A DNA stretch of 64,000 bases from Anaerolineae bacterium (GCA_049589355.1 JBAWAP010000384.1:2349-66348), one strand, 5' to 3'; numbered from the stretch's first letter, positions 7,366 through 33,837 are shown. Program-made: numbers and translations. Notes: generated from the sequence alone by a model not told the origin.

Positions 7366-8651
7366 CTTTTAGCAAGGGTGAAGGGGTTCTTCACGTAGGT
7401 TCCAGGGGGATATGGCTTCACCACGACCTCGACGTCTTCCCCGCTGAGGAAGCGGCCCAGCCGTTGGGCCTCGGTCATTAGGGCCTTGTTCTCGACATCC
7501 TGCCAGAGGAGCAATTCGATGGCAGCCTCTAGCTCCCGCCAGACGCCCACCGCCCTCCCATTGACCCAGACGGTGGCGAAGGCATTGCCTGCCCGGTCGA
7601 AGACCTTCTCGTAGTGCTCCGGCGCGAGAAAGCGGCGGCGATCCCGATACCCCATAAGGTAGGGATCGAGGCTGGGAAGCAAGTTGGCAGTCGGCTCTGG
7701 CCCAAGCTGGGTCTCCTGTAGCTGTTGATGATCCGTCGCCAGCATCAAATAGCCCCCGCCCAGGCCCTCAATCTCGGTCTCCACGATCTCGTCGTCCAAG
7801 GCGGACAGGGCCCTCCTTGTCTCCCCTTTGCTGAAGCCGCTCCACCAGGCGATGTCCTCCAGGGTGGCCGGGCCAAGGGCGGCGAGGTAACTTCGCACCA
7901 AGCGAGCCTGTGCCTCATCTGGTGTGAGGGATTCCAGATCTACATCGGGCAACCAGACAGCCAGGGAAGCGTACTCGTGCAGGGTGCTGCGCCAACTGCC
8001 GCGGGGTTTGGCCCTCACCAGAAGGCCCAGGATGCACATGCCTGGCACGATCCTCGAACCCAGGCTAAATTCACCCGCGTAGGGCTTGTCCACGTTGTAC
8101 TTGACCTTGATATTGAGCTCCGGCACCAGTTCGCTCATCTCCGACACCGTGGATGGCCCTCTGTCTGCCAGAATCTCCGCGATCCGCTGATGCAGGCGGT
8201 CCAGCGCCTCCGCTTCTTCTCCCTCTTTGCACAGCCCGGCTTGCACCAGCAACCCGCGTGCCGCGCTCGGGAACCGCCTTTGCACTTGCTTCTTCGTGGC
8301 CTGGAAGAAGGCCGGTAGCTGGTCTGAGGGGACGATGTGCAGTGTCCTGCGCATGGATATTACCCTAACCAGCCTTCTGTTCTCGTACAGTGCCGCATCG
8401 AGTTGCTGACGACTAAACCCTTTCACTCTGCTCCAGAGGGAGAGATAGGGGGTGAGGGCTGACGTGGCGTGCAGGGCGCAGATGTCCTCGACGACCTGCA
8501 CGACATCGTCCCCCCGCGTCTCCGGAGCAAGGTGCTGCTTGCTCAACAGAAACCAGTTGACTTGATCCGGAGTCACTGGCCTGATGCCCACGGTCACCCT
8601 CTGTAGACCTGTTCGTACTTGGCCCCGCACTCCCTGTGCAATTGCAGCCAC
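7362..8651 (-). CDS. Winged-helix DNA glycosylase, YcaQ/AlkZ (DUF1006) family-like
   Basis: ~400 aa with wHTH region and 'RRTLHIVP' motif characteristic of the YcaQ/AlkZ interstrand-crosslink glycosylase family. 5' end overlaps the next ORF, so the true start is probably an internal GTG/TTG. Confidence 0.55.
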   Translation of the reverse strand: MAAIAQGVRGQVRTGLQRVTVGIRPVTPDQVNWFLLSKQHLAPETRGDDVVQVVEDICALHATSALTPYLSLWSRVKGFSRQQLDAALYENRRLVRVISMRRTLHIVPSDQLPAFFQATKKQVQRRFPSAARGLLVQAGLCKEGEEAEALDRLHQRIAEILADRGPSTVSEMSELVPELNIKVKYNVDKPYAGEFSLGSRIVPGMCILGLLVRAKPRGSWRSTLHEYASLAVWLPDVDLESLTPDEAQARLVRSYLAALGPATLEDIAWWSGFSKGETRRALSALDDEIVETEIEGLGGGYLMLATDHQQLQETQLGPEPTANLLPSLDPYLMGYRDRRRFLAPEHYEKVFDRAGNAFATVWVNGRAVGVWRELEAAIELLLWQDVENKALMTEAQRLGRFLSGEDVEVVVKPYPPGTYVKNPFTLAKR

Positions 8652-9004
8652 CTGTCCCGCTGACGCTGGTCGGCCCAGTATGCCTCCTGCTCGTCCAGCC
8701 AGGCCTCCACGCCGATGCGCCGTATCCGCCTCAGGTTCTCCAGCACGGGCAGGTGGGTTCGCCAGATAGGGTCGTAGGCGAACTGGATGATGCGCGTGCA
8801 GGGGAAATCGTCACACTCAGCGCAGCTTTCGAGTCCCTTCTCGGTGATACAACGATAGATGTAGCAGGCACGGCGATGAGGCCCCGCCGCGCAGTGATCG
8901 CAGTCGCAGGCGCAGCCGTGACAGGTCCTATCCAGCAAAAACTCGCTGCAGTTGCCGCAGTAGAGACCGCATGGAGCAGCGAGCTTCTTTCGATCGCTCA
9001 ACAT
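8594..9004 (-). CDS. DUF3795 cysteine-rich protein
   Basis: CGLYCGNC...C..C.C..C...C.EC..FPC pattern. Confidence 0.7.
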   Translation of the reverse strand: MLSDRKKLAAPCGLYCGNCSEFLLDRTCHGCACDCDHCAAGPHRRACYIYRCITEKGLESCAECDDFPCTRIIQFAYDPIWRTHLPVLENLRRIRRIGVEAWLDEQEAYWADQRQRDRWLQLHRECGAKYEQVYRG

Positions 9005-9016
9005 TTTGCATCCTTT

Positions 9017-9622
9017 TTACTCGGGCCTTTTCCTCAGCTTCAGGTCAACGCCAGCTTGCGAGGCCAATGCTTGGATGGACGATTTCATGGCTTTGGCCTT
9101 GGCTTTCAAGTCCAAACCATCAATCTGCTCGCTGGCCAGCATCCCCTCTATCTTGCCTATCGCCTGGCGGATCAGATCGGGAGGCATCAGGGCGCAGGCC
9201 GCACAGTAGAAGCTCATCGAGCGGCCCTCGTTGTAGTTGGCCAGGAGGTGTTCCACCAAAAGCCGTCGTTTCCGCTGCTCCTCCAGGTAGGTTTCCAGCC
9301 CGACCTCCCTGATCCTGTCCAGATTGGGGATAGCGGGCTTGTGGCTCAAGAAGCTGTCCAGTCCCTCCTCCATGCCCAGCACCCTCAGCAGCCTTTCGCA
9401 AGGATACTCGGCGCAGTCAGCGCAGGTGAAAAGCTTCCGCTTGACGACACAGCAGCGGTAGACGCTACAGTAGGAATGTTGCTCGCCCAATTGGCAGCCG
9501 AGGCACCTGCTCTGGGCCTGGGACTGATAGCGGGGGCACAACCCGCAGTAGAGGCCGCAGACACTGGCCAGGTCTCTCTCTTCCACCAAGTTTACGATCT
9601 CTGCCTCCATATTCGCCAGCAA
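9017..9622 (-). CDS. DUF3795 cysteine-rich protein
   Basis: CGLYCGLCPRY...CLGC...C..YRCC...CADCAEYPCERL. Confidence 0.7.
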   Translation of the reverse strand: MLANMEAEIVNLVEERDLASVCGLYCGLCPRYQSQAQSRCLGCQLGEQHSYCSVYRCCVVKRKLFTCADCAEYPCERLLRVLGMEEGLDSFLSHKPAIPNLDRIREVGLETYLEEQRKRRLLVEHLLANYNEGRSMSFYCAACALMPPDLIRQAIGKIEGMLASEQIDGLDLKAKAKAMKSSIQALASQAGVDLKLRKRPE

Positions 9623-9659
9623 AAAGCGTCAGGGAGCTTTCCACGATGCACCCTTTGCG

Positions 9660-10163
9660 TTATCCCTCTGGTTTCTCGAACGCCCGATTCCGAACTGCCT
9701 CATCTACCTGGTAACGGATGTCGGCGTAGACGACGCCACGCCGTGCCCGTTCCTCCTGCTCGCTCAGCCATTGTTCCAACCCCACAGCCTGCAGGCGCCG
9801 GTTGTCGGCGATGAGCGTGGGGTAAATGGCGTTCAGAGCCTCAATGCGGGAGCATGGGAAATCGGGGCACTGGTTGCACAGTTCCAGGCCCCGTTGCTGG
9901 ACGCAAACGCGGATCTGGCAATAGGGTGGACCGCCACCAGCACGACAGCCGGGACAACCACCATTGGCGTGCAAGCCATCCAAGAAGCGCCAGAACTCGG
10001 CAAAGCCGGAGATGCCGGCTCCCCAGTCAGCCCATCCTTCCTCGGCCATCGCCTTCTGTAACGCTGTAGCCCGTTCGGGGATGCGCGATCGGGCAGCACA
10101 CAACCCACAGTGCAGGCCACAGTAAGTCACGAACTCCAATCTCTTGGTCATCTCAGCCTCCAT
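9660..10163 (-). CDS. DUF3795 cysteine-rich protein
   Basis: YCGLHCGLCA...CPGC...C..C..CPDFPCSRIE. Third of three tandem paralogs. Confidence 0.7.
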   Translation of the reverse strand: MEAEMTKRLEFVTYCGLHCGLCAARSRIPERATALQKAMAEEGWADWGAGISGFAEFWRFLDGLHANGGCPGCRAGGGPPYCQIRVCVQQRGLELCNQCPDFPCSRIEALNAIYPTLIADNRRLQAVGLEQWLSEQEERARRGVVYADIRYQVDEAVRNRAFEKPEG

Positions 10164-10423
10164 AAATTCTTCTGGCCGCTCGCAGGAACATGTCGTAGCC
10201 GAATGCCCTTGGCATGCCTTTAGTCAGGGAGTTGGGAGCACCTCGGCCTGGATCGTGCCTTCTACAAGGGTCAATAATCCCACCGTCGGCGGCCCGGTCA
10301 CCACTGTCGGCGATCGCTTCAGCCTGCCGCCGCGCCGCGTCATCTTTTAGCCTTCGCCCATCGATTTTTCCCCGCGGCGTAGGCGGCAGGCGCGTGTTCT
10401 CTGCTGTGCATCGTCGTTCGGTG

Positions 10424-10966
10424 CTATGTCGTTCGCGCCATCAATAGTTCATCGTAAAAGACACTGTCGTAGTAAAGGGCTTGTGGTTCGATTCCGTAAA
10501 CCTGAAACCCACAGTGAGCATAGCAGCGAATCGCACGAGTATTCGTTGTGACCACCGCTAGTTTGACAATCTTTACATCCTGAGTTCGTGCCCAATCCGC
10601 GCAAGCAGTTACGAGTCCCTCGGCAATACGAAACCCGCGCCAATCGGGTCGGACGTACATTCCCACGATATTTGCGCTGTGCTGTATCTTGGGCGAGTTC
10701 GTGCGAGTAATGCCACACATGCCTATCACCTGTTGGTCGTGAACGGCAAAATAAATCATGACCGCGCTATCCGTGCTGTTAAACCGAAGTCTCTCTGTCC
10801 AGAAGGTCATCGGCTTGGCAAGGTTCGCCGCGTAATCCGAGGAAAATGCCTCAGGATGATTACGCAAAGCCTCTAAGCGCAAGTCGCGATAGGCTGGGGC
10901 ATCCTCCTCTCTTGCTGAACGTATTGTTACTGTTCCACGCGGAGTAGTGATAGGTGTATCCATTGT
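10424..10966 (-). CDS. GNAT family N-acetyltransferase
   Basis: Acetyl-CoA binding motif region (VRPDWRGFRIAEGLV). Start placed at internal MDTPI. Confidence 0.75.
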   Translation of the reverse strand, partial: TMDTPITTPRGTVTIRSAREEDAPAYRDLRLEALRNHPEAFSSDYAANLAKPMTFWTERLRFNSTDSAVMIYFAVHDQQVIGMCGITRTNSPKIQHSANIVGMYVRPDWRGFRIAEGLVTACADWARTQDVKIVKLAVVTTNTRAIRCYAHCGFQVYGIEPQALYYDSVFYDELLMARTT

Positions 10967-10977
10967 CCTTTGCTGAT

Positions 10978-11586
10978 TCAAGTTGGAATTGGACACCGAC
11001 CATAGTGCGAGCGGCATGGCAGAGAACTCGCCGCACGACGCAGAAAGACGCGCCGGGTAAGTGGTGGGCTCTTGGACAACTGAGCTTGAGCGCGCTCTGG
11101 TGTGAGGTGATAGACCGCCCCTGGACTGAAAAGCAACACATCATCATGCCACGATAGGTATGGCCGGTGGAAATGTCCGAAAATGATGGCATCCACCTGG
11201 CTGAAGGCTCGCAACACCTGTCGCTGGAAGCCACCCCACCAGAAGCGGCGGCCAGTGAACAGTTCGTTGGAAAGCATGCTGGGCAACTCTCGCCACACTG
11301 ATCGCCGACCGTGAACTAAACCAATCCGTGCCTTTCCTATCTCAATGACAGTCTTCACGGGCAGGTCGAGGGCGTCGTGATCACCCTTGACCGCCACCAC
11401 CGGAGCAAGTAACCTCAACTCGTCCAACACCTCTGAGTTGGTAATGTCGCCAGCGTGCAAGATCAGATCCACATCCTGAAAGAGATGCACAATCCCCTTG
11501 GGCAGCGCAGGCAAAAACTCGGGTACGTGTGTGTCAGCAATCACTCCTATCCTGTAAGCGGCCATCGGTAACTCTTTATGCGCCAC
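10978..11586 (-). CDS. Metallophosphoesterase (YfcE/MJ0936-like)
   Basis: IGVIADTHVP...HAGDI...GHFHRP metal-binding motifs. Confidence 0.8.
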   Translation of the reverse strand: MAHKELPMAAYRIGVIADTHVPEFLPALPKGIVHLFQDVDLILHAGDITNSEVLDELRLLAPVVAVKGDHDALDLPVKTVIEIGKARIGLVHGRRSVWRELPSMLSNELFTGRRFWWGGFQRQVLRAFSQVDAIIFGHFHRPYLSWHDDVLLFSPGAVYHLTPERAQAQLSKSPPLTRRVFLRRAASSLPCRSHYGRCPIPT

Positions 11587-11595
11587 TGCCTCACG

Positions 11596-12279
11596 TCATC
11601 GTCCCCGCGCCCGGCCCATAAGGGCGATAGTTCCTGGGTAAACGCGCTCCTCGACCACGTCGAACCCCACACTCGCCAGCAACACCATCAACTCATCCCT
11701 GGTGTACTTTCGAGCCCGCTTGCTCCTGCTGGCCAGCACTTTGAGTTTCCAGAAGATGAGCCTGGGCAACGTCGTCTTCAGCTTCTTTTTCAGTGCTGCC
11801 GTCTGTGAACTATCCACGGCCATGACCAGGAATAGGCCATCGGGCTTCAGCACACGCCTGATCTCGCGCAGAAAGCGCGGCGGACTGGCAACACACTGGA
11901 GGGCATGTATGCAGATAACGTGGTCGAATGACTTGGCAGGGAAACGCAGATCGCGGTTAAAATCCGCTTGCTCAAACGTAACGGACGCCTGTGGAAGCCG
12001 CGCCGCTTTTGTGCTGGCTTTCTTCAGCATCCCCAGTGCGAAATCAATGCCCACGACGTCGAATCCGACCTCTGCCAGCGCCAGGGCATAGTTGCCGGTG
12101 CCACATCCAATATCGAGCACCCGTTCGTTGTCGCGCCGACGGTAGCTGGTCAACCAGGCAACCGTCGCTTGGATGTCTTCCCGAGTTTCGGGAAGCTGAA
12201 GATAGTCATCCCAGGTATAGCTGTGCAGACTCCAGAACACACGCTCAAGCCAGTAAAATGGGCGCCTGTTCTTCGGCAT
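11596..12279 (-). CDS. Class I SAM-dependent methyltransferase
   Basis: VLDIGCGTGNYALALAE...FDHVICIHAL...LKPDGLF motifs I-III. ATG at 12279 preferred over the long upstream ORF. Confidence 0.8.
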   Translation of the reverse strand: MPKNRRPFYWLERVFWSLHSYTWDDYLQLPETREDIQATVAWLTSYRRRDNERVLDIGCGTGNYALALAEVGFDVVGIDFALGMLKKASTKAARLPQASVTFEQADFNRDLRFPAKSFDHVICIHALQCVASPPRFLREIRRVLKPDGLFLVMAVDSSQTAALKKKLKTTLPRLIFWKLKVLASRSKRARKYTRDELMVLLASVGFDVVEERVYPGTIALMGRARGR

Positions 12280-12469
12280 AGCTGTACTTGCTTTTGCCTC
12301 TCTCAAAAACTCACAGTTCGATATTTCGCCCGGCAGGGATGGCCTTCGGCGATTTCCAACTTTCGCTGGCCTGGACGTCCAACGACTGACTATAGCGTTC
12401 CGAACTTGCGCTCGGGGAAGTGGGCCCCGTGGGAGCAGACCAACTCCTGCTACTCCTTGTTGCCTGGCA

Positions 12470-13252
12470 TCAATGCTCGGCGTCAACTGGAATGAGCTGC
12501 CGTGGCTTCCCATCGGGCCACAACATCACCCGGCCAGCTAGCGTATTGTCTCGGATGAACATGATGACCACCTCGGCGACCTCATCAGGCTGGATCAGAA
12601 CAGGTGGAGGAGGAAAGTCAAGGGCTACGAGCTTATCTGGCGTCGTCGTAGCTAAGTAACGCTGCACCGCCGGCGTCTCGACCCAACCCGGGCAGATGCA
12701 GTTCACACGGATGCCGGCTTCTTTGAGGTAACCCAACGCGGCGGTGAGGCGCACTACGCTCGCCTTGCTGGCTGCGTACTCCGGGGCATCGTACGGTCGG
12801 TATCCGATCCCCGCCATTGAAGAGATATTGATAATCGCCCCGCCTCCACGCTTGCGCATGGCCTGCATGCCAAACTGGATGCCCAGCATGACGCCGCGCA
12901 AGTTGACGTCGAGCGTGCGGCTCCAGTGACCGGGTTCCGCTTCAGGAAAATATGGCTCAGGAGCGATGCCAGCGTTGTTCACGAGAATGTCCAGGCCCCC
13001 GAAGCGTTGCTCTACAAAGGCGATCATGGCCTGCACGTCTGCCTCGACCGCCACATCGGCCAGAACCAAGGCAGCGCGGCCACCATCTGCCTCAATTTGA
13101 CGCACCGTCTCTGCGCCGCCATCTTGATCTATGTCGGCAACGACAACTGCTACGCCTTCGCGTGCTAGTCGGGTAGCTATCACACGGCCGATACCAGCAG
13201 CAGCTCCGGTAACGAGTGCAACTTTATCTTTCATATCAACTCCTATGGCCAA
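12470..13252 (-). CDS. SDR family oxidoreductase
   Basis: TGAAAGIGR Rossmann motif, NNAG, YxxxK (YAASK). Confidence 0.85.
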   Translation of the reverse strand: MAIGVDMKDKVALVTGAAAGIGRVIATRLAREGVAVVVADIDQDGGAETVRQIEADGGRAALVLADVAVEADVQAMIAFVEQRFGGLDILVNNAGIAPEPYFPEAEPGHWSRTLDVNLRGVMLGIQFGMQAMRKRGGGAIINISSMAGIGYRPYDAPEYAASKASVVRLTAALGYLKEAGIRVNCICPGWVETPAVQRYLATTTPDKLVALDFPPPPVLIQPDEVAEVVIMFIRDNTLAGRVMLWPDGKPRQLIPVDAEH

Positions 13253-13262
13253 AAAACATCTC

Positions 13263-14147
13263 TTACAAAGTCAGGCCATGCTTCTCGGCGAGCATCCGCG
13301 CCCTGGCCATCAGCGCGTCGTGATAGGGCTTGCGGTTGGCGGCGATGTGGCGGTATCCCTCCACCAGGTCGGGGTAATGCCTCTCCAGCACCCTCCTGAC
13401 CTTGCCCCAGATCGCGCCGCTCAGTTTCATGCTGTCCACGAAAATGTAGGAGACACCCGCCCGCGCCAGTTCTCCGAAGAGGGCATCCATTTGCTCCTCT
13501 CCGTCTGAGAGGAAGGGCAGAAGCGGCCCGCAGAAGGCCCAGGTTCTGATCCCCGCACTCGCCAGCTCTGCCAGGGTTACCAGGCGGGCTGGAACAGGCG
13601 AGGAGCGGGGCTCAAACACGCGCCGCACCTCCTCGTCGAGAGTGGCGATGGTGAAGCCTATTTCTATGTCAGGGAGACGGAGAAGGAGGTCGAGGTCGCG
13701 CAGCACCAGGTCGGATTTGGTGAGGATGGAGACGGGAAAATCGCAGGCGGTGAGCACCTCCAGGCAGGCGCAAGTGATTTGATACTTCCTCTCCAGCGGC
13801 TGGTAGGGGTCGGTTACCGTGCCAATGGCGATGTTACCCCTCTTGGCTCGCCTCATCTGTCGGGCCAGCACCTCCGCTGCGTTGATCTTGGCGTCCACAA
13901 AGGTGCCCCAGTCCTCTTTGTGGCCGGTGAAGCGCTTCATGAAGATGGCGTAGCAGTAGACGCAGCCGTGGCTGCAGCCGACGTAGGGGTTGATGGCATA
14001 GTCAACCCCCTCGATGCCCGATTTGGTGAGGATGGACTTGCAGTTTATTTCCTTTACGATCACGTCGTGCTTTCCATGGTCACTGGTAATCCCCAAGCCA
14101 GTGGATTCTGGAGAAGTCGTCCCGGACAGTGTTGTACAGCCTCTCAT
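13263..14147 (-). CDS. Radical SAM protein, spore-photoproduct-lyase-like (SPL family)
   Basis: CSHGCVYCY CxxxCxxC motif; N-terminal KSILTKSG region typical of SPL-like 'DNA repair photolyase' radical SAM proteins. Confidence 0.75.
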   Translation of the reverse strand: MRGCTTLSGTTSPESTGLGITSDHGKHDVIVKEINCKSILTKSGIEGVDYAINPYVGCSHGCVYCYAIFMKRFTGHKEDWGTFVDAKINAAEVLARQMRRAKRGNIAIGTVTDPYQPLERKYQITCACLEVLTACDFPVSILTKSDLVLRDLDLLLRLPDIEIGFTIATLDEEVRRVFEPRSSPVPARLVTLAELASAGIRTWAFCGPLLPFLSDGEEQMDALFGELARAGVSYIFVDSMKLSGAIWGKVRRVLERHYPDLVEGYRHIAANRKPYHDALMARARMLAEKHGLTL

Positions 14148-14517
14148 CGGCTGTCCAGAACTCGCCTTCCATCATCTCGGCCAGGGCCAGGTAGTGAGTA
14201 TCATAGGCAGCGGGGCGGTCGAAGCGAGCGGCCAGGTCGAAGGCTTTCAAAGAGATGTTGGATGGGTGGAGTAGGCGCACTCCAAGCATAAGGGCCCCGC
14301 GGACGGCCTCTTTGGCCTCCTCCACACTCATTAGGCCCCGCTTCGCTTTTCGCCAGATGGCCGAGGTGATCTCGAAGCAGAAGAGGTAGGGAGCGACGAT
14401 TTCTCGATCCTCATTCAGCCATTTTCCCCACAAGGCCAAAGCGAGGGGGCGATCTGGTTCCGGGGCCACAAGTTTGACGACAATATTAGCATCAACGCAG
14501 ACCGGTGATCTCGGCAT
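14080..14517 (-). CDS. vapC: PIN-domain toxin VapC
   Basis: VDANIVV...CFEITSAIW...YDTHYLALAE acidic PIN residues. Start ATG at 14517 overlaps the antitoxin 3' end. Confidence 0.7.
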   Translation of the reverse strand: MPRSPVCVDANIVVKLVAPEPDRPLALALWGKWLNEDREIVAPYLFCFEITSAIWRKAKRGLMSVEEAKEAVRGALMLGVRLLHPSNISLKAFDLAARFDRPAAYDTHYLALAEMMEGEFWTADERLYNTVRDDFSRIHWLGDYQ

Positions 14518-14758
14518 CCCGCTCCTCCCGCATCTGGCGGATATCCTCGACGCAGCTAGGCATCTCGCCGTATTTCCGTTCGAGTTCATCACCCAAGGCT
14601 CGTACCCGCTCCAGTGCCTCCAGACTTTGTCTCCTCCGTATCTCCCGCTCTGTCGCCTCGGCGATCAATCGTGAACGCTCCCCACTGGGGATCAGCCGCT
14701 TGATCTCTTCCCAGAGCCCACGAGGGAAAACCAGGGAAACCCGTACTGTATCGCTCAT
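14492..14758 (-). CDS. Antitoxin (ribbon-helix-helix/VapB-like)
   Basis: 88 aa immediately upstream of and overlapping the PIN gene; basic N-terminus then helical C-terminus. Confidence 0.5.
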   Translation of the reverse strand: MSDTVRVSLVFPRGLWEEIKRLIPSGERSRLIAEATEREIRRRQSLEALERVRALGDELERKYGEMPSCVEDIRQMREERDAEITGLR

Positions 14759-14803
14759 ATATACCTCCTGTCAGCACTGATGTTCTATACCCATTATACA
14801 CCA

Positions 14804-15466: not shown

Positions 15467-15538
15467 GGCCTGATCTCCGTTGTTGTGTACAAAGATAACC
15501 TCCTGCAGGTTCTAAAACCTACGGGAGGCTACTCCGTC

Positions 15539-15886
15539 TCAGAGGCCCTGCCTGATCGCATCCAGGGTAGCCCTGGCGGCAGGTACGAAGCCGAAGAAGC
15601 GCTCGATCTTCTCGCAGCCGTAGTCGTCGCAGTAAGCGCAGTTGAGGACACCTCGCTCCATGCCGCAGGCGCGGATGTCGCACTCATACCAGTGGCCGCA
15701 CTTGCGTTCTCCTTCGGTCACGCACCCGTCGCAGATGACCGATTCGACGGTGATGTCGGGCGCGTTGAACTCCTCGCGCCATTGCGCGGCCACTCGCTCC
15801 AGTGCGGCGTGGTCGTCTGCCTGGGTGGCGATGTAGGCCGGGCAGTCGCTGCATACCAGTCCACAGTAAGCGATGATCTTGTCCAT
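15539..15886 (-). CDS. DUF3795 cysteine-rich protein
   Basis: YCGLVCSDCPAY...CDGC...C..C.C...CAYCDDYGCEK. Confidence 0.75.
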   Translation of the reverse strand: MDKIIAYCGLVCSDCPAYIATQADDHAALERVAAQWREEFNAPDITVESVICDGCVTEGERKCGHWYECDIRACGMERGVLNCAYCDDYGCEKIERFFGFVPAARATLDAIRQGL

Positions 15887-15913
15887 TAGATTTCCTCCCT
15901 TTTTTAGTTATTT

Positions 15914-16267
15914 TCACGCCGCTAGGCTGGCGCGGATACCATCCAAGGTGGCGCGGGCGTGGGGCGCCATGCCAAAGAAGCCCTCCAGCTTTTCGCAGGC
16001 GTAGTCGTCGCAGTAGGCACAATTGACGACGCCCCGCTCCATGCCACAAGCGCGAACCTGGCACTCAAAGCAATAGCCACACAATCGCTCGCTATCCGAC
16101 AGGCAACCGTCGCACATGGCGGATTCGATGGTGATGTCAGGATTATTGAATTGTTCCCTCGCTCGTGCGGCCATTCGTTCTAGTGCAGCCAGGTCATTCG
16201 TCTGGGTAGCAATGTATGCCTCGCAGTCGGTGCACACCAAACCACAATAGGCGATCATTTTGTCCAA
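15914..16267 (-). CDS. DUF3795 cysteine-rich protein (tandem paralog of 15539-15886)
   Basis: Near-identical architecture and many identical residues to the downstream paralog. Confidence 0.75.
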   Translation of the reverse strand: MDKMIAYCGLVCTDCEAYIATQTNDLAALERMAARAREQFNNPDITIESAMCDGCLSDSERLCGYCFECQVRACGMERGVVNCAYCDDYACEKLEGFFGMAPHARATLDGIRASLAA

Positions 16268-16452
16268 CAGATTTCCTCCTCTCTTTACTCGTTATGCGGT
16301 CATTGGTGGGCTTGCAAGTATTGTTCGAATTCCTTCATACAGACGAGGCAGCGGTCGAGGGCATTTTCGGACCGCCCACCCCTTTTCAGGAACTTGCGAA
16401 ACCCTTGCGCATCCATGTAGTACCTCCTTCCAATGAAACACCCCCGATTGAT

Positions 16453-22644: not shown

Positions 22645-23667
22645 TCAAAAATTCAAGGTGTAAGACGATTCCCGCGCTGCGTGCGCAACGGCTAGGTTAA
22701 TCCGTTTTTGCACGCGCAGCACCAGGAAGGTGACCCAGGGCGAGGGGTTCTTCTTGTCGGCGAAGGACCAGCCCTTCCAGGCGCGGTACATCGAGCCCGC
22801 GGTGTAGTGGCCCTCCCCGTCCGCCTGAGCGGTGATCGTCTCCACCATCTCCCGGAAGCGAGGGTCAGTGTGAACGAACAGGAAACGGCTGAGCATGTCC
22901 ACCACGTGCAAGATGTCGTACCAGACGAACGGGTACTTGAGCTTGCGAAAGTCGGTACCGATGCCGAACATGTAGATCTTGCGCTCGATCCGGTGTTCCC
23001 AGTGCCAGAGGAGCATCTCGGCGCCAGTGCGTGTGGCCGGGCCGTCGAGCAATTCTGGAACCTGGGCCAGCGCCTTGAGCGCATAGACGTTGACGATGGG
23101 GCAGGGATCTTCTCTGCGCCCCGGCCCCTTGAACTTGCCCAGCTCCGGCGCGCCGACGCATCGCCAGCCGTTGCCGTCTACCAGGCCAATCAGGTGATCC
23201 ACCGCTCGCTGCACGCGCGGGTCGTTGCCCAGCCCCATCGCCAGCAAGGCGTAGAGCAACGTCGGTGCGTCGCACAGCATCCACGTCCATAAGTCCTCGC
23301 CTGTCCCACCAAAGGCCTCGGGGATGTTCACCAGGCTCTGGAAAGCCCCCTCCGGCGACTGGTGGGTCATCACAGCCTTGATGCCGGCGGACATACCCGG
23401 ATCATCCGCCCGTACGCCGAAGTCGGCCAGGGTGCTGAACTTGTAGAGGGGGTGGTTGGCGTCGTTGTGCCGCTGGAGGGCATAGCCGGGCCAGGTGGCG
23501 GCCTCGGCGATGAGCCCCTGCACTGGTGGATGGGCCAGCATCTCGGCGTGGGCAGTTTGCACTTCGGGGTCGTCTTCAGGCCGGTCGAGCAGATCCACCA
23601 GCGTGCGATACCGAGTCCAGGGCTCATCCGATTCCAGCAGCCATTGAATCAGATCAGTTTTTATCAT
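22645..23667 (-). CDS. Prenyltransferase/squalene-oxidase (QW) repeat alpha-toroid protein, paralog 1
   Basis: N-terminal DLIQWLLESDEPWTRYRTL motif; QxxxGxW-like repeats (QSPEGAF, VDGNGWRC, ADGEGHYT). Confidence 0.5.
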   Translation of the reverse strand: MIKTDLIQWLLESDEPWTRYRTLVDLLDRPEDDPEVQTAHAEMLAHPPVQGLIAEAATWPGYALQRHNDANHPLYKFSTLADFGVRADDPGMSAGIKAVMTHQSPEGAFQSLVNIPEAFGGTGEDLWTWMLCDAPTLLYALLAMGLGNDPRVQRAVDHLIGLVDGNGWRCVGAPELGKFKGPGRREDPCPIVNVYALKALAQVPELLDGPATRTGAEMLLWHWEHRIERKIYMFGIGTDFRKLKYPFVWYDILHVVDMLSRFLFVHTDPRFREMVETITAQADGEGHYTAGSMYRAWKGWSFADKKNPSPWVTFLVLRVQKRINLAVAHAARESSYTLNF

Positions 23668-23712
23668 TTCACTGCTCGAATATCCTGTGAGCTTGCTTCA
23701 ACAATGTCTTTG

Positions 23713-24702
23713 TCATTCTTTGCTTAAAACCCGCATGTCCGCCTTGGAAAAATATCTAAATGCCCTTTCGCCGTACTCTTCGTCAAGCCTAGCCACATAG
23801 CTCCGAAGCGCTTCTAGTGCGAATACGCCGCCAGCATCATCACCAAAGGACATCTCTATGAACCACGCCCCTTTCCTCAACGCTCCCGTTGGAGTCAACC
23901 ATCCCTCTTCCGCTAGCGGGATGTGTTCACAGCGCACGCCGTATTCCTCCAGAGCCTTACAGTAGTCCTTCACCCTTGAATAGCTCGAGTGTATCTTCTG
24001 CGCCAAATAAGTCTCGCCGTCAATTACAAGGTCTGAACCACCTTCCTCCTTGGGTTGGCCGAAGCGTCCGAACGCCCACAATAGCTTAAGTAAGTGCCGT
24101 CTCCTTTTCTCGAGCACTGCCTGCCGGGCGTATGAGACATCGTTGACGACTTCTATCGCTGCTATGAGCCGATGGAGGGCTTCAAGCGCCGAGGTCTCTT
24201 CCTTGGAGAAGGGCAGGTCGTCGGGGAAGTCTACGAGTTCAGGCCTGGCGGAAACCTTGGTCATCTCTACGATGTCTTTCGGGCCAAGGGAAGCGCGTAT
24301 TTTATGCAGATGCTTAATGCCTTCGTAGGGCTCTATGAAAGTGAGGTAGTCTTCTTCTGGTATCGGGGTTCCTAGTCGGGCGGCGGTTCTCTCCCTCGCA
24401 TCCGCCGAGAGAGAAACCCTTGGCACATCTTCACAGGGGTAGCCAGAGCAATGGACGCAGGTCTTGACGCCGTTTCTTACCGCGCATCTTCGCACGTAGC
24501 AGTTCTGATAGCGCACCGGATTTTCATCGTCCGGCGCCTGGCAGCCATCGCAGAGGCGAAGCTTGGAAGGACTTAGTCGGAAGCCCAGGTATTTCGCCCA
24601 TCCGTCGCTGCATCGCTGTCTGTCCCCGTCGGTCTGAAGGGTTTCTTTGTAAGATGGGCAGCGGCCGCAGTTGCAACCGCATTTGGAAAACAAGTCTTTC
24701 AT
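23713..24702 (-). CDS. DUF3795 N-terminal Cys-rich domain fused to an uncharacterised ~200-aa C-terminal domain
   Basis: CGCNCGRCPSY...CDGC...C..C.C...CVHCSGYPCED, then a non-Cys domain. Confidence 0.55.
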   Translation of the reverse strand: MKDLFSKCGCNCGRCPSYKETLQTDGDRQRCSDGWAKYLGFRLSPSKLRLCDGCQAPDDENPVRYQNCYVRRCAVRNGVKTCVHCSGYPCEDVPRVSLSADARERTAARLGTPIPEEDYLTFIEPYEGIKHLHKIRASLGPKDIVEMTKVSARPELVDFPDDLPFSKEETSALEALHRLIAAIEVVNDVSYARQAVLEKRRRHLLKLLWAFGRFGQPKEEGGSDLVIDGETYLAQKIHSSYSRVKDYCKALEEYGVRCEHIPLAEEGWLTPTGALRKGAWFIEMSFGDDAGGVFALEALRSYVARLDEEYGERAFRYFSKADMRVLSKE

Positions 24703-24763
24703 TAGGATTCTCCTTGAGATCAGGATTGATATTGAACAGCCCGGGATGCAGAGATTCCTCTCA

Positions 24764-25771
24764 TCAGAAATTCACCGTTCGATACTCCGCCTGGCAGGGA
24801 TAACCGGCTGCGATGTCCAGTTGCCGTTCACCCGGCCGCCCCACCACCGACCACAGTGTCCCGAACTTGCGGTCGGGAAAGTGCGCCCCGTGGGAGCATA
24901 CCAAACCCTCGTGGTCGCGTAGGGCCTGTTTCACAGCATCCTTATCCACCAACCCATTGCCCCCAAGCAACTCACGGAGACGGTTGTAGCGGGGATGAGA
25001 GTCCATGGGCACGAAGGTTTCTTTACCAGCCCATTCCGGACAGACGGCGTGGTTGGTCATAATCAGTAGTCCGTCTTCTGGGTAACGCACTGCGATTCCC
25101 TCCACGGTCGGCTCCACAACCGCGGCTTTGCCGGACTGATCTGCCAGGAGGTAGGTCCAACTGCCCGCATGAGGCACCTTTTGGATCAGCTCCAGCCCCT
25201 CGTCCACCGTCGCACAGCGGTCGAGGACCAGGCGGGCGATAAGCCAGAAGGTCAGACCTGGCTGCAGGCCCGGAAGGAAAAGAGCAGCAATCGCCACAAA
25301 GAGGCCGGCTTCGTTGAGTCCATCGTCGCGCCCCACCCAGATATCGCAATCGCCCAGGCTAGCGTAGCGCCCGTCGGGATAGGTGCGATAGGTTGTTGCC
25401 GGCTCCTCCGAGATGTCGTGGAAATAGTCGTAGTTCCGGCCGACGATGGGCCAACCATCGGCCGTCCGCTCCGGCGTTACCGCAAGCACGCTGCAACCAG
25501 ATACCTCTGCAGAATCGAAGGGGGCGGTCAGAGTCAGGGTCATCAAGGCACTGTAGTCCACCTCAGCCGCCTCCGCCAGTCCCCGCATCTCGTCCAACAA
25601 CTCTGGTGCATACTGCCCCACAATTTGCTCACACTGCTTGGCAAAATGGAGCATTTTGGGGTCTGGCGGGGGTAGGGTCATGCCCTTCAAGGGATAACCA
25701 TGCTGTCGTCCTATCTGTTCATAACTACCACGGAGTTCAACCTGATGCATCGGATAAGCCTCCTTTCTCAA
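24764..25771 (-). CDS. C45 family Ntn-hydrolase (acyl-CoA:6-aminopenicillanic acid acyltransferase-like)
   Basis: MHQVELRGSYEQIGRQHG N-terminus and putative autoprocessing Gly-Cys (SGCSVLAV). Confidence 0.65.
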   Translation of the reverse strand: MRKEAYPMHQVELRGSYEQIGRQHGYPLKGMTLPPPDPKMLHFAKQCEQIVGQYAPELLDEMRGLAEAAEVDYSALMTLTLTAPFDSAEVSGCSVLAVTPERTADGWPIVGRNYDYFHDISEEPATTYRTYPDGRYASLGDCDIWVGRDDGLNEAGLFVAIAALFLPGLQPGLTFWLIARLVLDRCATVDEGLELIQKVPHAGSWTYLLADQSGKAAVVEPTVEGIAVRYPEDGLLIMTNHAVCPEWAGKETFVPMDSHPRYNRLRELLGGNGLVDKDAVKQALRDHEGLVCSHGAHFPDRKFGTLWSVVGRPGERQLDIAAGYPCQAEYRTVNF

Positions 25772-26724
25772 AGCTCATTGACAATTCTCCGCAGTGCCTC
25801 TAATCCGTCTGCCTCAGCATCTCGGGCTGTTCGCAGGGCGTCTATCGCCGTGCGAATTTGCGCTTGGTCCTTGACGTGCTCAGGCTTCATGCCGTGAAAC
25901 GGAAACGTGTTGGCGACAGTCTGGAGGTTCTCGGACACCACCTGATACTGATCGAGCGCCTCATCAAACAAGGCTGCTGCCTGTCCATCCAGGCGTTCCT
26001 TGGCTTCTTGCAGGAACAAGACGGCATAGCCGCGACATTCCTGCCAGACCGCAGCATTGTAGGCCACGCCAAACCCGTCGGCCGTACCGCTTTCCAGGGC
26101 GCGGATCCAGGTGTCGTACCCGGCCAATCCAGCTTTGTACTTGGGGAATATCCACTTTGCCGGACTGGTAGCGTGCTCCAGGGCAAATGTCAACGCTTCT
26201 TTGACGGTCTGAACGTCATCGGCCGCTTGCCCCGGCTTTAGGCTGTACATCTCCAGCACGCCGATTTCGGTGTCCCCCAACTCTTGCCACGGTTTGGGGC
26301 CTTTCCCCTCATCGCAACCTGGCCCGGAAAAGTAGTATCCGTTGTCATCGTAGCCGTATACGACGTAGTATTCGGCAATGTCCAACTCCCAGCCATAGCA
26401 GGGAAGACCTTGGTCAATCGCCGCTTTGACATGCTCCCAGACCAGTTTCTGCTTTTCGGCAAAACCATCGGCTGACTTCATGCCGAACACACTATCAATC
26501 TCATAGCCAATGTTCTTGCCGAGCTTGAACAGCATCTCCATGTTCCACGCCGTTGGCCCGCTGGGGCAAACCACCTCGTGCACGTTGATGACAAACGCAT
26601 GGCCCGTCGAACCGAACAACCAGGCGTCGGAACCGTCCAGATTCAGATAGTCCAGACACCCTTTGATACAGCCAAGGTGCGACACCCAGCGCGGCACCCA
26701 TCTCAGATTCTCTAGCTTTTTCAT
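25768..26724 (-). CDS. Hypothetical protein (possible BtrH_N/DUF4872-like papain-fold domain)
   Basis: 318 aa; 4-nt overlap with the C45 gene suggests co-translation. Family call tentative. Confidence 0.3.
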   Translation of the reverse strand: MKKLENLRWVPRWVSHLGCIKGCLDYLNLDGSDAWLFGSTGHAFVINVHEVVCPSGPTAWNMEMLFKLGKNIGYEIDSVFGMKSADGFAEKQKLVWEHVKAAIDQGLPCYGWELDIAEYYVVYGYDDNGYYFSGPGCDEGKGPKPWQELGDTEIGVLEMYSLKPGQAADDVQTVKEALTFALEHATSPAKWIFPKYKAGLAGYDTWIRALESGTADGFGVAYNAAVWQECRGYAVLFLQEAKERLDGQAAALFDEALDQYQVVSENLQTVANTFPFHGMKPEHVKDQAQIRTAIDALRTARDAEADGLEALRRIVNEL

Positions 26725-26742
26725 TTGGTCACTCCTTTCTCG

Positions 26743-27252: not shown

Positions 27253-27626
27253 CCGTTTTTCTCCTCCCAGAGTCCGAACATATTGCCGCTGGGATCGGTG
27301 AAACAGGCCCTATAAGCAGGGCCTTGTGGAGTCTTAGGGGTGACGACCTTTCCCCCGAGTTCTGTCACTCTCTTCAGAATAGTCTCGATGTCCTCCACTA
27401 CAATGTAGACGACTACACCAAGGGGTTCACCCTTGGGCCTTAACCATATCCCACCTCGTCGAAGGTTCTGTAGCCGTGGTTCACCAGCCGTATCAAAAAT
27501 CCAGACACCGAACCCTTCTGCAGTCTCCTTTTCGATTATCTTCCAGCCAAACAGGTTTTGATAGAAGCTTGCGGTTTTCTCTATATCTCTTGTCCTTATC
27601 TCAATCCAATCAAACGCATTAGACAT
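27249..27626 (-). CDS. VOC/glyoxalase-fold protein
   Basis: ~125 aa beta-alpha-beta-beta-beta modules (FDWIEIRTRD..., VVYIVVEDIE). Confidence 0.75.
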   Translation of the reverse strand: MSNAFDWIEIRTRDIEKTASFYQNLFGWKIIEKETAEGFGVWIFDTAGEPRLQNLRRGGIWLRPKGEPLGVVVYIVVEDIETILKRVTELGGKVVTPKTPQGPAYRACFTDPSGNMFGLWEEKNG

Positions 27627-27659
27627 CGCAAAACCTCCTGTTCGTTTCTGTTGTTTCAC

Positions 27660-30659
<3,000 letters not shown>

Positions 30660-31425
30660 GTCCCTCAGCCTGAACTTGGGCGGAAATCAGTTTTAGCCGC
30701 GTTGGCCACTCGTCAGGCTGTAACGCTGGCGCGTCAAACAGGGCTGGCGTCTCGACCCCGCCGATTACAGCGGGAAAGAACTCGATGCTGATTTCGTCTA
30801 CAAGCCCAGCACGCAAGAGCGCGCCGTTCAACTTGCCCCCAGCCGTTGACACCACACATGTAACACCCAACTGGTACCCCAGCTTCTCCAGGGCAGCGTG
30901 AAGATCAACTCGCTCTTCCCCTGCCACCAGGTAGGGAATCTTTTCGCGCTGGAGGTAGGCCAGATACTCGGGTGGAGTATGGTGGGCTACCAGGACCAGC
31001 AGGTGCCACCCTTCCCATCCCTCAAATTCTTTGTAAAACCATCGTACGCGTCCTCGACTATCCACAGCCGTGAACCACCCCTGATGTCCCGGACGATGGA
31101 CGACATCGTGTGGCAAAAAGTCCTGATACAGTGACTGAGGATCATCGTCAACGGGCGGGAGAGGCTCGGGCTCCGCGTCATTCAAAACAAAAGAGCCGCT
31201 GCCTTCAAGAAAGACTTGTGGTTTGTAGGTAAGCTTGAGCCGTTCGTATACATCGTCGCTTGATCCCGCGACAGCCTGCCATCTCTCGTCCCCGTATAGC
31301 AGAAGGACATCGGGTGCAAGCGTTATCCTCCCATCTACTGAAGCAACTGCATGGACTACCACTCGTGGTCTGTCCATAGACACTTTCCTCCTCTGTTCAA
31401 AATTGTGCCAGGTATCTTGAATTTA

Positions 31426-32388
31426 TCATCCAACGGATGCGTACTGCGCTGCGATGGCGCGGGCCCGTTCGCTCACCAGGCAACGTAATTCCTCCGGCTC
31501 CAGCACCACGGCGTGGGGGCCATAACTGAACGCCAGCCGGGCCGGCCACTCCAGGTCTAACGCGGCGAAGGTGACGATCACCGAGCCGTCGGGCTGCTCG
31601 TCCACCGTGTCCCAGAAGGCACGGTCATCGAGCGCCAGGAGCGCCGCCTCTGGGGCGAAGCACATGCGGACTTGCACCTGTGGCTGTGCCTCTGGCTCCG
31701 CAGCCAGGTACTCCTGGATGTCGAAATCGCCTGGCACCTGGAAGATCTGGTTGAGCAGTGTCAGTTCGATGATGCGATCCACGCGGAAGGTACGCACGGC
31801 CTCGCGCAGGTGGCAGTGGCCGATGACGTACCACCAGCCCCAGCGGTGGATCAGCGCATAGGGATCGAAATCTCGCTGCAGGGGTTCTGACTGCCCACGG
31901 CTCCGGTAGGCCACCGTGACTCGTCGCCGCTCACGGGTCGCGCGCCGCAGTTTCTCCAGCAGCGGTACCAGCGGCGTGAAGTCGGCGCGGTGCATACCGG
32001 TCGCCCACAGTGTCCGACGCGCCCAGGCCACTTCGTGCCGCTGTTCGTCGGGGAGCACGTTAACCAGCTTGGCCAGCGCGCCTTGCGCCGCCTCACGGTA
32101 CATCTGGCCCCAAATCTCTTCCACCAGGCTGGTGCCCAGATAGACGGCGACGGCCTCCTCGGGGGTGAAAACAAGCGGGGGCATCTTGTAGCCACGCACT
32201 AACGAGAAGCCGCCGTAGGGGCCGCGCTCGGAGTAAACCGGGATGCCCATCTCGTCCAGCATCATGATGTAGCGGTGCAAGGTGCGCACCGAGATACCCA
32301 ATTCCTCCGCCAGTGCAGCCGCTTTCTGGCTGGGTCGCCGCTGCAATAGCATGATCAGTGAGATCAGTCTGGTAGCAGTGTTCAACAT
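31426..32388 (-). CDS. WYL-domain transcriptional regulator (HTH-WYL-WCX, YafY/PafBC/DriD-like)
   Basis: N-terminal HTH (SVRTLHRYI), central WYL (HRWGWWYVIGHCHLREAVRTFRVDRI), C-terminal WCX-like region. Confidence 0.8.
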   Translation of the reverse strand: MLNTATRLISLIMLLQRRPSQKAAALAEELGISVRTLHRYIMMLDEMGIPVYSERGPYGGFSLVRGYKMPPLVFTPEEAVAVYLGTSLVEEIWGQMYREAAQGALAKLVNVLPDEQRHEVAWARRTLWATGMHRADFTPLVPLLEKLRRATRERRRVTVAYRSRGQSEPLQRDFDPYALIHRWGWWYVIGHCHLREAVRTFRVDRIIELTLLNQIFQVPGDFDIQEYLAAEPEAQPQVQVRMCFAPEAALLALDDRAFWDTVDEQPDGSVIVTFAALDLEWPARLAFSYGPHAVVLEPEELRCLVSERARAIAAQYASVG

Positions 32389-32497
32389 GATGCTCTCCCT
32401 CGATCGTCCGATGGACGGGGTACGACAATATTCTACACCAGGTTTATGACAAAAGCTGGCATAATTGTAGTGGAGTTTGAGGAAAAATCAAATGGAT

Positions 32498-32941
32498 TTA
32501 GCCAGGAAGAGGGACTCCACAGGCGCGGCAGGTCTCGCTATAGATGTCCACCGGTTTGCGGCAAGCAGGGCAGCGCCAGCGAGCCTCCTGCTCAACCAGC
32601 CAGGCATCGAGGCCGACCTCGGCCAGGCGGCGCAGGTTGGAGAGAGGGATGTCGCGGCGGTCGGCGCTGAAGGCGGCCAGTTCCTTGCAGGGAAAGTCCA
32701 TGCACTCATAGCAGAAGGTGATGCCCTGGTCCTGCGTGCAGGTCTTGAATCGGCAGTCCGGAGTCCAGAGGCAGTCAAAGGGGCCACGACAGCCCTCGCA
32801 GCGGATGTCCTCCGGCTGGCAGTGGAAGGCCTGGCGGGCGGCCCGTTCCAGCCGTTCGGTGTCCCTGTCTTTGTACATCCGGTAGATGCCGCAGGCCCCG
32901 CAGTAGAGACCGCAGGCGCTGGCTAATGTAGTGTCAGTCAT
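32498..32941 (-). CDS. DUF3795 cysteine-rich protein
   Basis: CGLYCGACGIY...CEGC...C..C..C...CYECMDFPCKEL. ATG at 32941 forms ATGA overlap with the stop of the upstream toroid gene. Confidence 0.75.
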   Translation of the reverse strand: MTDTTLASACGLYCGACGIYRMYKDRDTERLERAARQAFHCQPEDIRCEGCRGPFDCLWTPDCRFKTCTQDQGITFCYECMDFPCKELAAFSADRRDIPLSNLRRLAEVGLDAWLVEQEARWRCPACRKPVDIYSETCRACGVPLPG

Positions 32942-33837
32942 TTCACCTCTTCCCCGAATTGTTTGAGCACGTGCAAGGCTTTGAGTGTGATCCACTTGCT
33001 CGGTTGCCCATTGCGCTCGATGCGCACGGCGGTGGAGCCGCCCTCCTTGAACCAGCGACCATCGTCCTGCTGTTTCTTCACGACGTGCTGCACCAGTGTC
33101 CAAAACCGTGGGTCGGCGGCGTAGCCGCAGGCGGCCAGCGCCTCCAGCGCGTCCAGCAGGTCGGACTGAAAGTACCACGGGAAGCCGAATCGCAGCCAGC
33201 AGGCTTCCTCACCCTCGAAATCGAAGTCGTGGGAGAGGAGTGCTTCGGCTGTACGGGCTATCGCGCCGCGGACGTCCCAACCTTTAGGGGCGGCGGCAAA
33301 GGCCCACAGCGCTTTGACTGCCAGCCAGTGGCAGGGGTGCTGCTTCTGGTACCAACAGATGAGGCCATCGTCCTGCTCCAGCCGCTCAATCATCGCTCTC
33401 CAGCCTTCATCCACACGGGGATCGTCCCCGTAGCCGAAATGGGCGAGGAAGCGCAGGCAGTTGGCAGTGTAGCAGGGCACAATGCACACCGGCCGGCGCA
33501 TCGGGAGCCAGGGCTTGCTCAGCACGAACTCGCAGCCTCGGTGAGTGCGCTCGTCGGGCGGGACGCCTAAACGGGAAAGGATGAGGAGTTGTCCTGATGC
33601 GCGTTTGATCCCGGTTGCCCTTTCCGGCGTATCCCACCAGCCAGTGGGATCCTGGCGGGCGAAGATGGCCTGCACGTCCTTCGAGCCGGGGATAGCCGCG
33701 CGTGCCTCGCTCACTTCGGGGCTGCCGGTGGGCCGTTCAAGGATGTCGGTGAGCGTGAAGTAGCGCACCGAGGAATTATCTAGTTCGAGAAGCCAATCGG
33801 TTGGATCTGCCTTTAAGAGGTCTTTCCAATTCGCCAT
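32938..33837 (-). CDS. Prenyltransferase/QW-repeat alpha-toroid protein, paralog 2
   Basis: DLLKADPTDWLLELDNSSVRYFTL N-terminus; QDPTGWWD, QDDGLICWY, QQDDGRWFKEG repeats. Confidence 0.5.
   Translation of the reverse strand: MANWKDLLKADPTDWLLELDNSSVRYFTLTDILERPTGSPEVSEARAAIPGSKDVQAIFARQDPTGWWDTPERATGIKRASGQLLILSRLGVPPDERTHRGCEFVLSKPWLPMRRPVCIVPCYTANCLRFLAHFGYGDDPRVDEGWRAMIERLEQDDGLICWYQKQHPCHWLAVKALWAFAAAPKGWDVRGAIARTAEALLSHDFDFEGEEACWLRFGFPWYFQSDLLDALEALAACGYAADPRFWTLVQHVVKKQQDDGRWFKEGGSTAVRIERNGQPSKWITLKALHVLKQFGEEVK

Follow-up and report, generated by a model that had tools for sequence, protein, structure and literature searches.

A 64,000-nucleotide (nt) stretch of DNA from the metagenome-assembled genome of an Anaerolineae bacterium (GCA_049589355.1 JBAWAP010000384.1:2349-66348), hereafter the window, carries seven genes for Cys-rich DUF3795 proteins (a to e, a fusion protein, and g) within a co-directional array that appears, from its promoter, to be under SOS (LexA) control. 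The start of DUF3795 g overlaps the end of a gene for an alpha-toroid protein, toroid A, and this pairing is real and probably functional in the g lineage, as judged by its recurrence in related contigs. The explanation we favor overall, with modest confidence, is that the DUF3795 proteins are standing members of an array under LexA-type control and that DUF3795 g and the toroid would form a two-subunit metalloprotein. Judged by gene order, the pairing of DUF3795 with a toroid is sporadic elsewhere, archaea included (L060 and L067), and is not a property of the whole family.

The junction between the two genes was read on the minus strand (Table 1). The ATG of DUF3795 g (32941-32939) was found to overlap the TGA of toroid A as ATGA (32938-32941) and to be preceded by a GAGGTGA ribosome-binding site, which bears out the overlap proposed in an earlier interpretation of the DNA (the sequence-only reading). 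The longest open reading frame (ORF) at this locus starts with GTG and encodes 226 amino acids (aa); the orthologues are 147-148 aa long and begin with MTD or MSD, so the ATG was taken as the correct start. Loci encoding a protein of at least 63% identity to DUF3795 g were then surveyed, and a toroid gene or its remnant was found to adjoin the g-type gene in most contigs. The 4-nt overlap was identical in L081 and L089, where the junction is kept at 80-97% identity, and in L090 the toroid and DUF3795 form one in-frame ORF of 439 aa. Together, the overlap and ribosome-binding site in the window, the repeated overlap, and the fusion indicate translational coupling. The genes are spaced more widely in (i) L085, where the toroid gene lies 40 nt upstream of the g-type gene; and (ii) L082-84, where it lies 33 nt downstream, with the pair among glycosyltransferase genes and no repair genes nearby. 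L093 (~2384-2572) and L094 (upstream of 3875) retain no more than the final 50-60 codons of a toroid gene (…NKWLTLDALRVIK), with stop codons before them, ahead of their g-type gene; the pair can thus decay while the DUF3795 gene persists.

The neighborhoods were also examined from the toroid side, using the best 80 loci of 424 toroid relatives in GTDB species genomes (Chloroflexota, Bathyarchaeia, Thermoplasmata, Atribacterota, and Asgard archaea). All eight DUF3795 genes in these 80 loci were within 1 kb of a toroid gene and none was in the remaining 724 kb of flanking sequence (binomial p = 5e-5, uncorrected for relatedness), a clustering beyond that expected by chance. Other DUF3795 lineages also meet toroid genes: copies about 50% identical to DUF3795 d adjoin toroid genes in Bathyarchaeia L060 and L067, and in the window the gene for toroid C follows the fusion gene (23713) after 45 nt. 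The latter adjacency is kept in the close relative L002 only and is absent in L139, L141, and L142.

All seven DUF3795 ORFs, on the minus strand and inside the array, were found to exceed the PF12675 (DUF3795) gathering cutoff of 22.6 bits that was used as the criterion for family membership (28.8-62 bits; E-values 1.7e-6 to 7.8e-17 by Pfam). A hidden Markov model built from the seven detected no eighth copy when the whole window was scanned in all six frames. The number and positions of the genes in the sequence-only reading were therefore confirmed, as was their location in a DNA damage-linked array, their neighbors being repair and detoxification genes. To call the set an expansion was misleading, since pairwise identity among the copies is 25-41% except for d and e (70%), the sole recent duplicates, and each lineage has orthologues of 65-97% identity in other Anaerolineae contigs. 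By these comparisons, six of the genes represent DUF3795 lineages that diverged anciently and the seventh is a recent duplicate; recent tandem amplification was considered and ruled out on the low identity of the paralogues. Orthologues were identified for (i) DUF3795 a, whose 3′ end and the AlkZ-like gene overlap if the latter is taken as its longest ORF, in L003, L002, and L128 (79-91% identity); (ii) b in L128 (94%) and L136 (77%); (iii) c in L056 (78%, flanked by two toroid genes) and L095 (79%); and (iv) d in L002, L136, and L081. The 329-aa fusion protein consists of an N-terminal DUF3795 domain followed by about 230 aa without a family match; its C-terminal part had no PDB sequence match, and the C-terminal 183 aa matched no Pfam family at E-values up to 10. 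Its orthologues form a large, well-conserved group (≥60% identity; >120 clusters of full length).

The DUF3795 core was found to contain 10 invariant Cys, arranged as C-x3-C-x2-C, C-x2-C, C, C, and C-x2-C-x4-C, in all seven copies and 42 homologues, rather than the eight counted earlier. DUF3795 g has an added four-Cys zinc ribbon at its C terminus, detected as a weak Zn_ribbon_3 match by Pfam. An AlphaFold2 (AF2) model of DUF3795 g was mostly helical (predicted local distance difference test [pLDDT] score of 93), and a structure search with this model returned no fold relative in the PDB. With 10 invariant cysteines holding this small helical domain together, DUF3795 very probably binds metal, for which the Zn or Fe-S site of the sequence-only reading is a candidate. 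Searches for known relatives gave little: DUF3795 d, DUF3795 g, and the fusion protein had no match in PDB sequence searches, NCBIfam has no model for DUF3795, scans with PADLOC (anti-phage defense) and PHROGs (phage families) were also blank, the core matched no second Pfam family at E-values up to 10, and the literature yielded nothing beyond one passing mention. The CX2CX2CX3CP motifs of 2x[4Fe-4S] ferredoxins are absent from DUF3795, and neither a Fer4 match in Pfam at E-values up to 10 nor a fold match was obtained.

DUF3795 resembles ferredoxins, rubredoxins, metallothioneins, and the N-terminal Zn(Cys)4 domain of Ada in being small with dense invariant Cys, and it shares with such small Cys-rich metalloproteins the apparent use as a portable accessory module, either joined to an enzyme or encoded next to one. 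The g-type domain was found fused to an alpha/beta hydrolase (P0464), TPR (P0382), and an (HhH)2 DNA-binding domain (P0195), as well as to itself in tandem. In the window, DUF3795 d is encoded 72 nt upstream of an alpha/beta-hydrolase gene whose product is weakly similar to the hydrolase domain of P0464. A g-type profile recovered 3,256 representative clusters. A tblastn search of plasmids with DUF3795 d gave one Parabacteroides match, in metabolic surroundings that were uninformative. The organisms named among the DUF3795 and toroid matches (Anaerolineae, Bathyarchaeia, Brockarchaeota, and Parabacteroides) are mostly anaerobes.

The partner of DUF3795 g, toroid A, is 100% identical to NCBI protein WBW48_21375, and its AF2 model (pLDDT 94) is a twelve-helix (alpha/alpha)6 barrel with the six hairpins of this fold. 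Its (near-)invariant cysteines are C102, C122, C161, and C169, with no invariant His, and each of the three toroid paralogues of the window has four such cysteines. A toroid family profile matched the QW repeats of squalene-hopene cyclase (E-value 1e-6), so the term QW-repeat toroid is fair as a description of fold. Class II terpene cyclase membership was not indicated: toroid A is a single 299-aa barrel with no DxDD and no PF13243 or TIGR01787 match (nor a second Pfam family at E-values up to 10), and toroid B, with an SQHop_cyclase_C match below threshold, scored 18.7 bits against the 26.1 of Pfam PF13243 and 15.8 against the 322.7 of TIGR01787. The Zn site of LanC and prenyltransferases (Cys-Cys-His or Asp-Cys-His) is also lacking, with no invariant His or Asp at the matching position, and NCBIfam, PADLOC, and PHROGs were without a match to the toroid proteins. 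Compared with class II terpene cyclases such as squalene-hopene cyclase, prenyltransferase beta subunits, LanC cyclases, and thioester domains, the toroid thus differs in its single barrel of about 300 aa, its four (near-)invariant Cys, the absence of DxDD and of an invariant His, and its scores below Pfam thresholds. On this evidence, the toroid belongs to no characterized family. The public name of the toroid homologues P0057, P0080, and P0090, nitrogen fixation protein NifH, looks like a propagated annotation error. Between toroids B and A, a 336-aa protein (33872-34882, minus strand) without a Pfam, NCBIfam, PADLOC, or PHROGs match is encoded; it is kept near toroid genes in L089 (435-1442) and L056 (1420-2430) at 71-95% identity.

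Immediately ahead of the gene that opens the array (36486-37445), a consensus sigma-70 promoter was identified that is overlapped by two perfect GAAC-N4-GTTC LexA-type boxes (37496-37507 and 37466-37477); this motif occurs three times in the 64-kb window. LexA recognizes this motif in Firmicutes and Actinobacteria, and Chloroflexi variants have been reported (PMC4951493). The unit of about 70 bp (TTGACA, LexA box 1, TATAAT, LexA box 2) was found nearly unchanged in seven contigs, with differing first genes behind it, and was thus conserved in six related loci (Table 1). Paired boxes were detected four times in 1.5 Mb of related loci, in each case as this promoter unit. A strong promoter with two LexA-type operators predicts that at least the first operon is damage inducible. 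Since no terminator-like site was detected on the coding strand from the promoter to 32498, toroid A and DUF3795 g are predicted to form the end of this first LexA-controlled operon. Expression of the later sub-operons may come from read-through or be governed by a WYL regulator. Genes for LexA, RecA, or a translesion polymerase were not seen in the window. The arrangement shares with the Cheo-box operons of the LexA regulon two perfect operators on a consensus promoter and genes for excision and base repair, with uvrA heading the unit in L136 (PMC4951493). It differs from LexA regulon operons in its long, gene-shuffling cargo of mostly detoxification-type enzymes together with DUF3795 and toroid proteins.

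The array comprises 37 co-directional genes, from 37445 down to 6154, separated mostly by gaps of 0-70 nt or by overlaps. Its products include (i) repair proteins (AlkZ-like, HhH-GPD, UDG, UvrA, and AlkD-like/HEAT by Pfam); (ii) detoxification-type proteins (DinB_2 from three genes, GyrI-like, glyoxalase/bleomycin-resistance, GNAT, SDR, aldo-keto reductase with Fer4, and MFS); and (iii) radical SAM, PIN, and HTH-WYL-WCX regulator proteins. The WYL regulator gene holds an equal position in L089, and its product gave the sole PADLOC/PHROGs match. In related contigs, the orthologues were found in unchanged relative order but with many genes absent, for example UvrA, toroid C, DUF3795 d, DUF3795 b, and MFS in L136; DUF3795 g, RibD_C, and toroid C in L091; and, within 7 kb of L002, radical SAM, DUF3795 a, toroid A, AAT, the DUF3795 fusion, toroid C, aldo-keto reductase, and DUF3795 d. 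As read from these comparisons, the promoter stays fixed during evolution while the arrays behind it gain and lose entire genes.

From these features we infer LexA control, a physical complex, a metal content, and an activity for the pair, as follows. The seven DUF3795 genes would be standing members of a flexible genotoxic stress array in a clade of anaerobic Anaerolineae. DNA damage would switch on the first operon, comprising genes for an AlkD-like protein, an FMN reductase-like protein, toroid B, the 336-aa protein, toroid A, and DUF3795 g. Made from overlapping cistrons, DUF3795 g and the toroid would most likely assemble as a two-subunit metalloprotein, in which the toroid, with its four-Cys site and central cavity, may be the substrate-binding or catalytic subunit and DUF3795 an accessory metal cluster module, of the Zn-thiolate kind or with iron-sulfur (Fe-S) for carrying electrons. 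The target of the pair may be a DNA-damaging small molecule or a lesion. The other six DUF3795 copies are probably equivalent accessory modules serving other array proteins rather than obligate toroid partners. An Fe-S cluster is favored because both partners are Cys rich, the hosts are anaerobic, and ten cysteines suit two clusters; a role as a Zn-based adaptor or in DNA binding has almost the same likelihood.

Several observations weigh against this interpretation. Within the g lineage, the g-type gene is without an intact adjoining toroid in L091 (where one is 750 nt away), L092, L093/94, and L095/96, with no adjacent toroid at all in L092 and L095/96, and the L090 fusion is on a single 3.2-kb metagenome contig, Ga0163210_1013838, in which an assembly indel is possible. 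A DUF3795 gene is present in 7 of the 80 toroid loci (9%), where ABC exporter (12/80) and AlkZ-like (8/80) genes are at least as frequent. Of about 40 loci with homologues of <50% identity, L130 and L136 alone have a toroid; these homologues otherwise stand in unrelated contexts (NUDIX, GNAT, DUF885, and ribosomal), with no shared partner found by neighbor clustering. The gene after orthologues of the fusion protein is GyrI-like, SDR, or unknown and not a toroid. Furthermore, LexA boxes stand at the array head only and degenerate ones (up to 2 mismatches) inside the array are at chance level, so the evidence of SOS control ends at the head promoter, and the gain and loss of whole genes makes adjacency in part a by-product, which weakens neighborhood arguments for six of the seven copies. 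Hydrolase, NUDIX, and GNAT partners need no electrons, which argues against a purely redox role. Overall, the recurring pairing put forward by the sequence-only reading was upheld for the g lineage (L081, L089, L090, L085, and L082-84) but not for the <50% homologues, the toroid loci at large, or the 23713 type; the genome neighborhood comparison it had called for thus shows co-occurrence in a narrow Anaerolineae lineage of the 32498 type that is not family-wide.

Some of this pattern could arise if DUF3795 and the toroid were merely two of about 20 families in a damage-inducible, gene-shuffling array, working independently, with their adjacencies, the ATGA overlap included, coming from tight packing and the deletion of intervening genes. 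Consistent with such an origin, L136 and L091 keep the window order minus many genes, 4-nt overlaps are common in the array (6154/7362, 24764/25768, 26743/27249, and 36244/36486), different DUF3795 paralogues adjoin different toroid paralogues in both orders, and the fusion-type orthologues are not beside toroid genes. We nonetheless consider mere neighborhood unlikely, given that the pair persists in L082-84 away from any repair array, is joined into one reading frame in L090, and keeps its junction in L081 and L089, that bathyarchaeal toroid genes also adjoin a DUF3795, and that the DUF3795 genes of the 80 toroid loci all lie so close to the toroid.

Two further alternatives concern the role of the cysteines. 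DUF3795 could be a zinc-stabilized adaptor or nucleic acid-binding module that targets or regulates its partners at damaged DNA, the toroid being one of several clients. Its three C-x2-C knuckles and the added zinc ribbon would suit such a role, as would the fusions to the (HhH)2 DNA-binding and TPR protein interaction domains, the electron-independent partners noted above, and the position of DUF3795 genes next to AlkZ-like DNA glycosylase genes in the window and, in the same order, in L128 and L081. Ten invariant Cys per ~90 residues exceed what a typical zinc finger needs, however, there is no fold match to any zinc finger class, and the mostly anaerobic hosts would better fit an oxygen-labile Fe-S cluster; this account is possible, if somewhat less than likely. 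Alternatively, the DUF3795 proteins could be induced as sacrificial acceptors of electrophiles, with parallels in metallothionein and in the Zn(Cys)4 site of Ada that accepts methyl groups. The toroid would then, in the manner of LanC and prenyltransferases, catalyze Zn-dependent thiol alkylation and so load genotoxic alkylators onto them. The array is rich in relatives of genes for resistance to alkylating genotoxins (AlkZ-like, AlkD-like, GyrI-like, glyoxalase/bleomycin-resistance, and DinB-type thiol transferases; PMC8626424, PMC9854587), the toroid fold is common to LanC and prenyltransferases, and several paralogues could match several toxins. That all ten cysteines are invariant in a confidently predicted fold suggests structural or metal ligands over free thiols, and the toroid is without the invariant His of the LanC/prenyltransferase Zn site, which together make a thiol sink very doubtful. 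The two-subunit metalloprotein with a DUF3795 accessory module is thus retained as the preferred explanation.

Table 1. Features of the window and promoter units of related loci (positions in the sequence named; DUF, DUF3795)
Feature	Sequence	Position	Strand	Description
DUF3795 a	window	8594..9004	-	136 aa; PF12675 E 4.9e-7; end of tandem trio
DUF3795 b	window	9017..9622	-	201 aa, TTG start; PF12675 E 1.7e-6
DUF3795 c	window	9660..10163	-	167 aa; PF12675 E 9.3e-15
DUF3795 d	window	15539..15886	-	115 aa, short form; PF12675 E 7.8e-17
DUF3795 e	window	15914..16267	-	117 aa, TTG start; PF12675 E 2.1e-15
DUF3795 fusion protein	window	23713..24702	-	329 aa; PF12675 E 1.4e-11 on residues 5-93
DUF3795 g	window	32498..32941	-	147 aa; PF12675 E 6.1e-16; start overlaps toroid A stop
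Toroid A	window	32938..33837	-	299 aa; (alpha/alpha)6 barrel, four (near-)invariant Cys
Toroid B	window	34919..35848	-	309 aa; 32% identity to toroid A, E 5e-37
Toroid C	window	22645..23667	-	340 aa; 25% identity to toroid A, E 3e-12
AlkZ-like DNA glycosylase	window	7362..8651	-	PF06224 E 4e-68; directly downstream of DUF3795 trio
HTH-WYL-WCX regulator	window	31426..32388	-	Pfam WYL, WCX, HTH_11; directly downstream of toroid A/DUF3795 g
Array-head promoter	window	37466..37515	-	TTGACA-17-TATAAT, 12/12 match, TG extension
Promoter unit	L001	7945-8040		drives DUF3795, then toroid, DinB, toroid A, UvrA
Promoter unit	L002	8200-8290		drives radical SAM, then DUF a, toroid A and onward
Promoter unit	L003	6626-6720		directly drives toroid A
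Promoter unit	L136	1508-1600		drives uvrA, then toroid C, DUF d, DUF b
Promoter unit	L091	5900-6000		directly drives DUF g; first box degenerate
Promoter unit	L092	510-600		directly drives DUF g; first box degenerate

Other observations were made along the array and its borders. Between the window (6154-37445) and L002, L091, L136, L139, and L141, gene order is kept with clean presence or absence of genes. An integron cassette array was considered and rejected, the gaps being too short (mostly 0-70 nt) and no integrase being present among the annotated genes. An AAT/peptidase-C45-like gene and a gene for an unknown 318-aa protein overlap by 4 nt (24764-26724, minus strand) and are also adjacent in L141 (8913-10870; 79-82% identity), which suggests a second conserved uncharacterized pair; the 318-aa protein had no match in NCBIfam, PADLOC, or PHROGs. 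A PIN-domain gene (14080-14592, minus strand) is preceded by a 211-nt gap with a small ORF (MSDTVRVSLVFPRGLWEEIKRLIPSGERSRLIAEATEREIRRRQSLEALERVRALG), upstream of which lies a perfect 12/12 sigma-70 promoter (14821-14793, minus strand); the two genes resemble a toxin-antitoxin pair of the VapBC type that has inserted into the array, and a LexA-like box with 2 mismatches is nearby (14773-14786). At 35869-36489 (minus strand), an 81-aa ORF covers the first 62 of the 152 positions of the FMN_red model and is followed 12 nt later by a 120-aa ORF without a match; this region may be a split or frameshifted gene for an NADPH-dependent FMN reductase. Divergent from and adjoining the array head is a tRNA-Gly(CCC) gene (37738-37812, plus strand), with a promoter-like site (37694-37722) and a terminator-like hairpin (37818-37850). 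Genomic islands commonly have tRNA genes as borders, so the array itself may be a kind of island; an integrase was not seen. Beyond 38 kb, the window encodes ordinary anaerobic metabolism (thiolase, aldehyde:ferredoxin oxidoreductase, Fe-ADH, and glycosyltransferases). A protein with an RVT_1 reverse transcriptase domain (59355-60938, minus strand) is encoded in the region of lowest GC content (58-60 kb; 0.476 compared with ~0.58) and may be of group II intron or retron type; no intron RNA was detected at the Rfam gathering threshold.

The gene content of the array was compared with the self-resistance sets of actinomycete biosynthetic clusters, in which AlkZ protects against azinomycin B, and a YtkR2/AlkD-type glycosylase with a GyrI-like hydrolase against yatakemycin (PMC8626424, PMC9854587). 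The array shares with these genotoxin self-resistance sets AlkZ-like, AlkD-like/HEAT, GyrI-like, glyoxalase/bleomycin-resistance, UvrA, and MFS proteins encoded side by side, but has no biosynthetic genes and belongs to an anaerobic Chloroflexi host. Neither DUF3795 nor the toroid is included in the described sets. The frame of SOS regulon and genotoxin resistance sets is known, and the components and their link are new. To our knowledge, the toroid/DUF3795 pair is in no described system.

In its furthest form, which we consider quite unlikely, this interpretation would make the pair an SOS-inducible, two-subunit metalloenzyme of anaerobes, with a four-Cys barrel and a ten-Cys partner of new fold, that neutralizes a DNA-damaging electrophile or processes one class of DNA lesion, and would turn the DUF3795 family, with its >3,000 representative clusters, into a new class of accessory domain, portable and carrying a metal cluster. 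The gain and loss of genes behind a fixed promoter matters for anyone reading function from neighborhood in such arrays. DUF3795 is a sizeable family without a solved structure and with a predicted fold unlike anything in the PDB, and the promoter with LexA-type boxes, together with the partner link by overlap, fusion, and co-transfer, provides its first testable functional context, namely, a response to DNA damage or genotoxins in strict anaerobes of the Chloroflexi, whose SOS regulon has hardly been mapped across the phylum.

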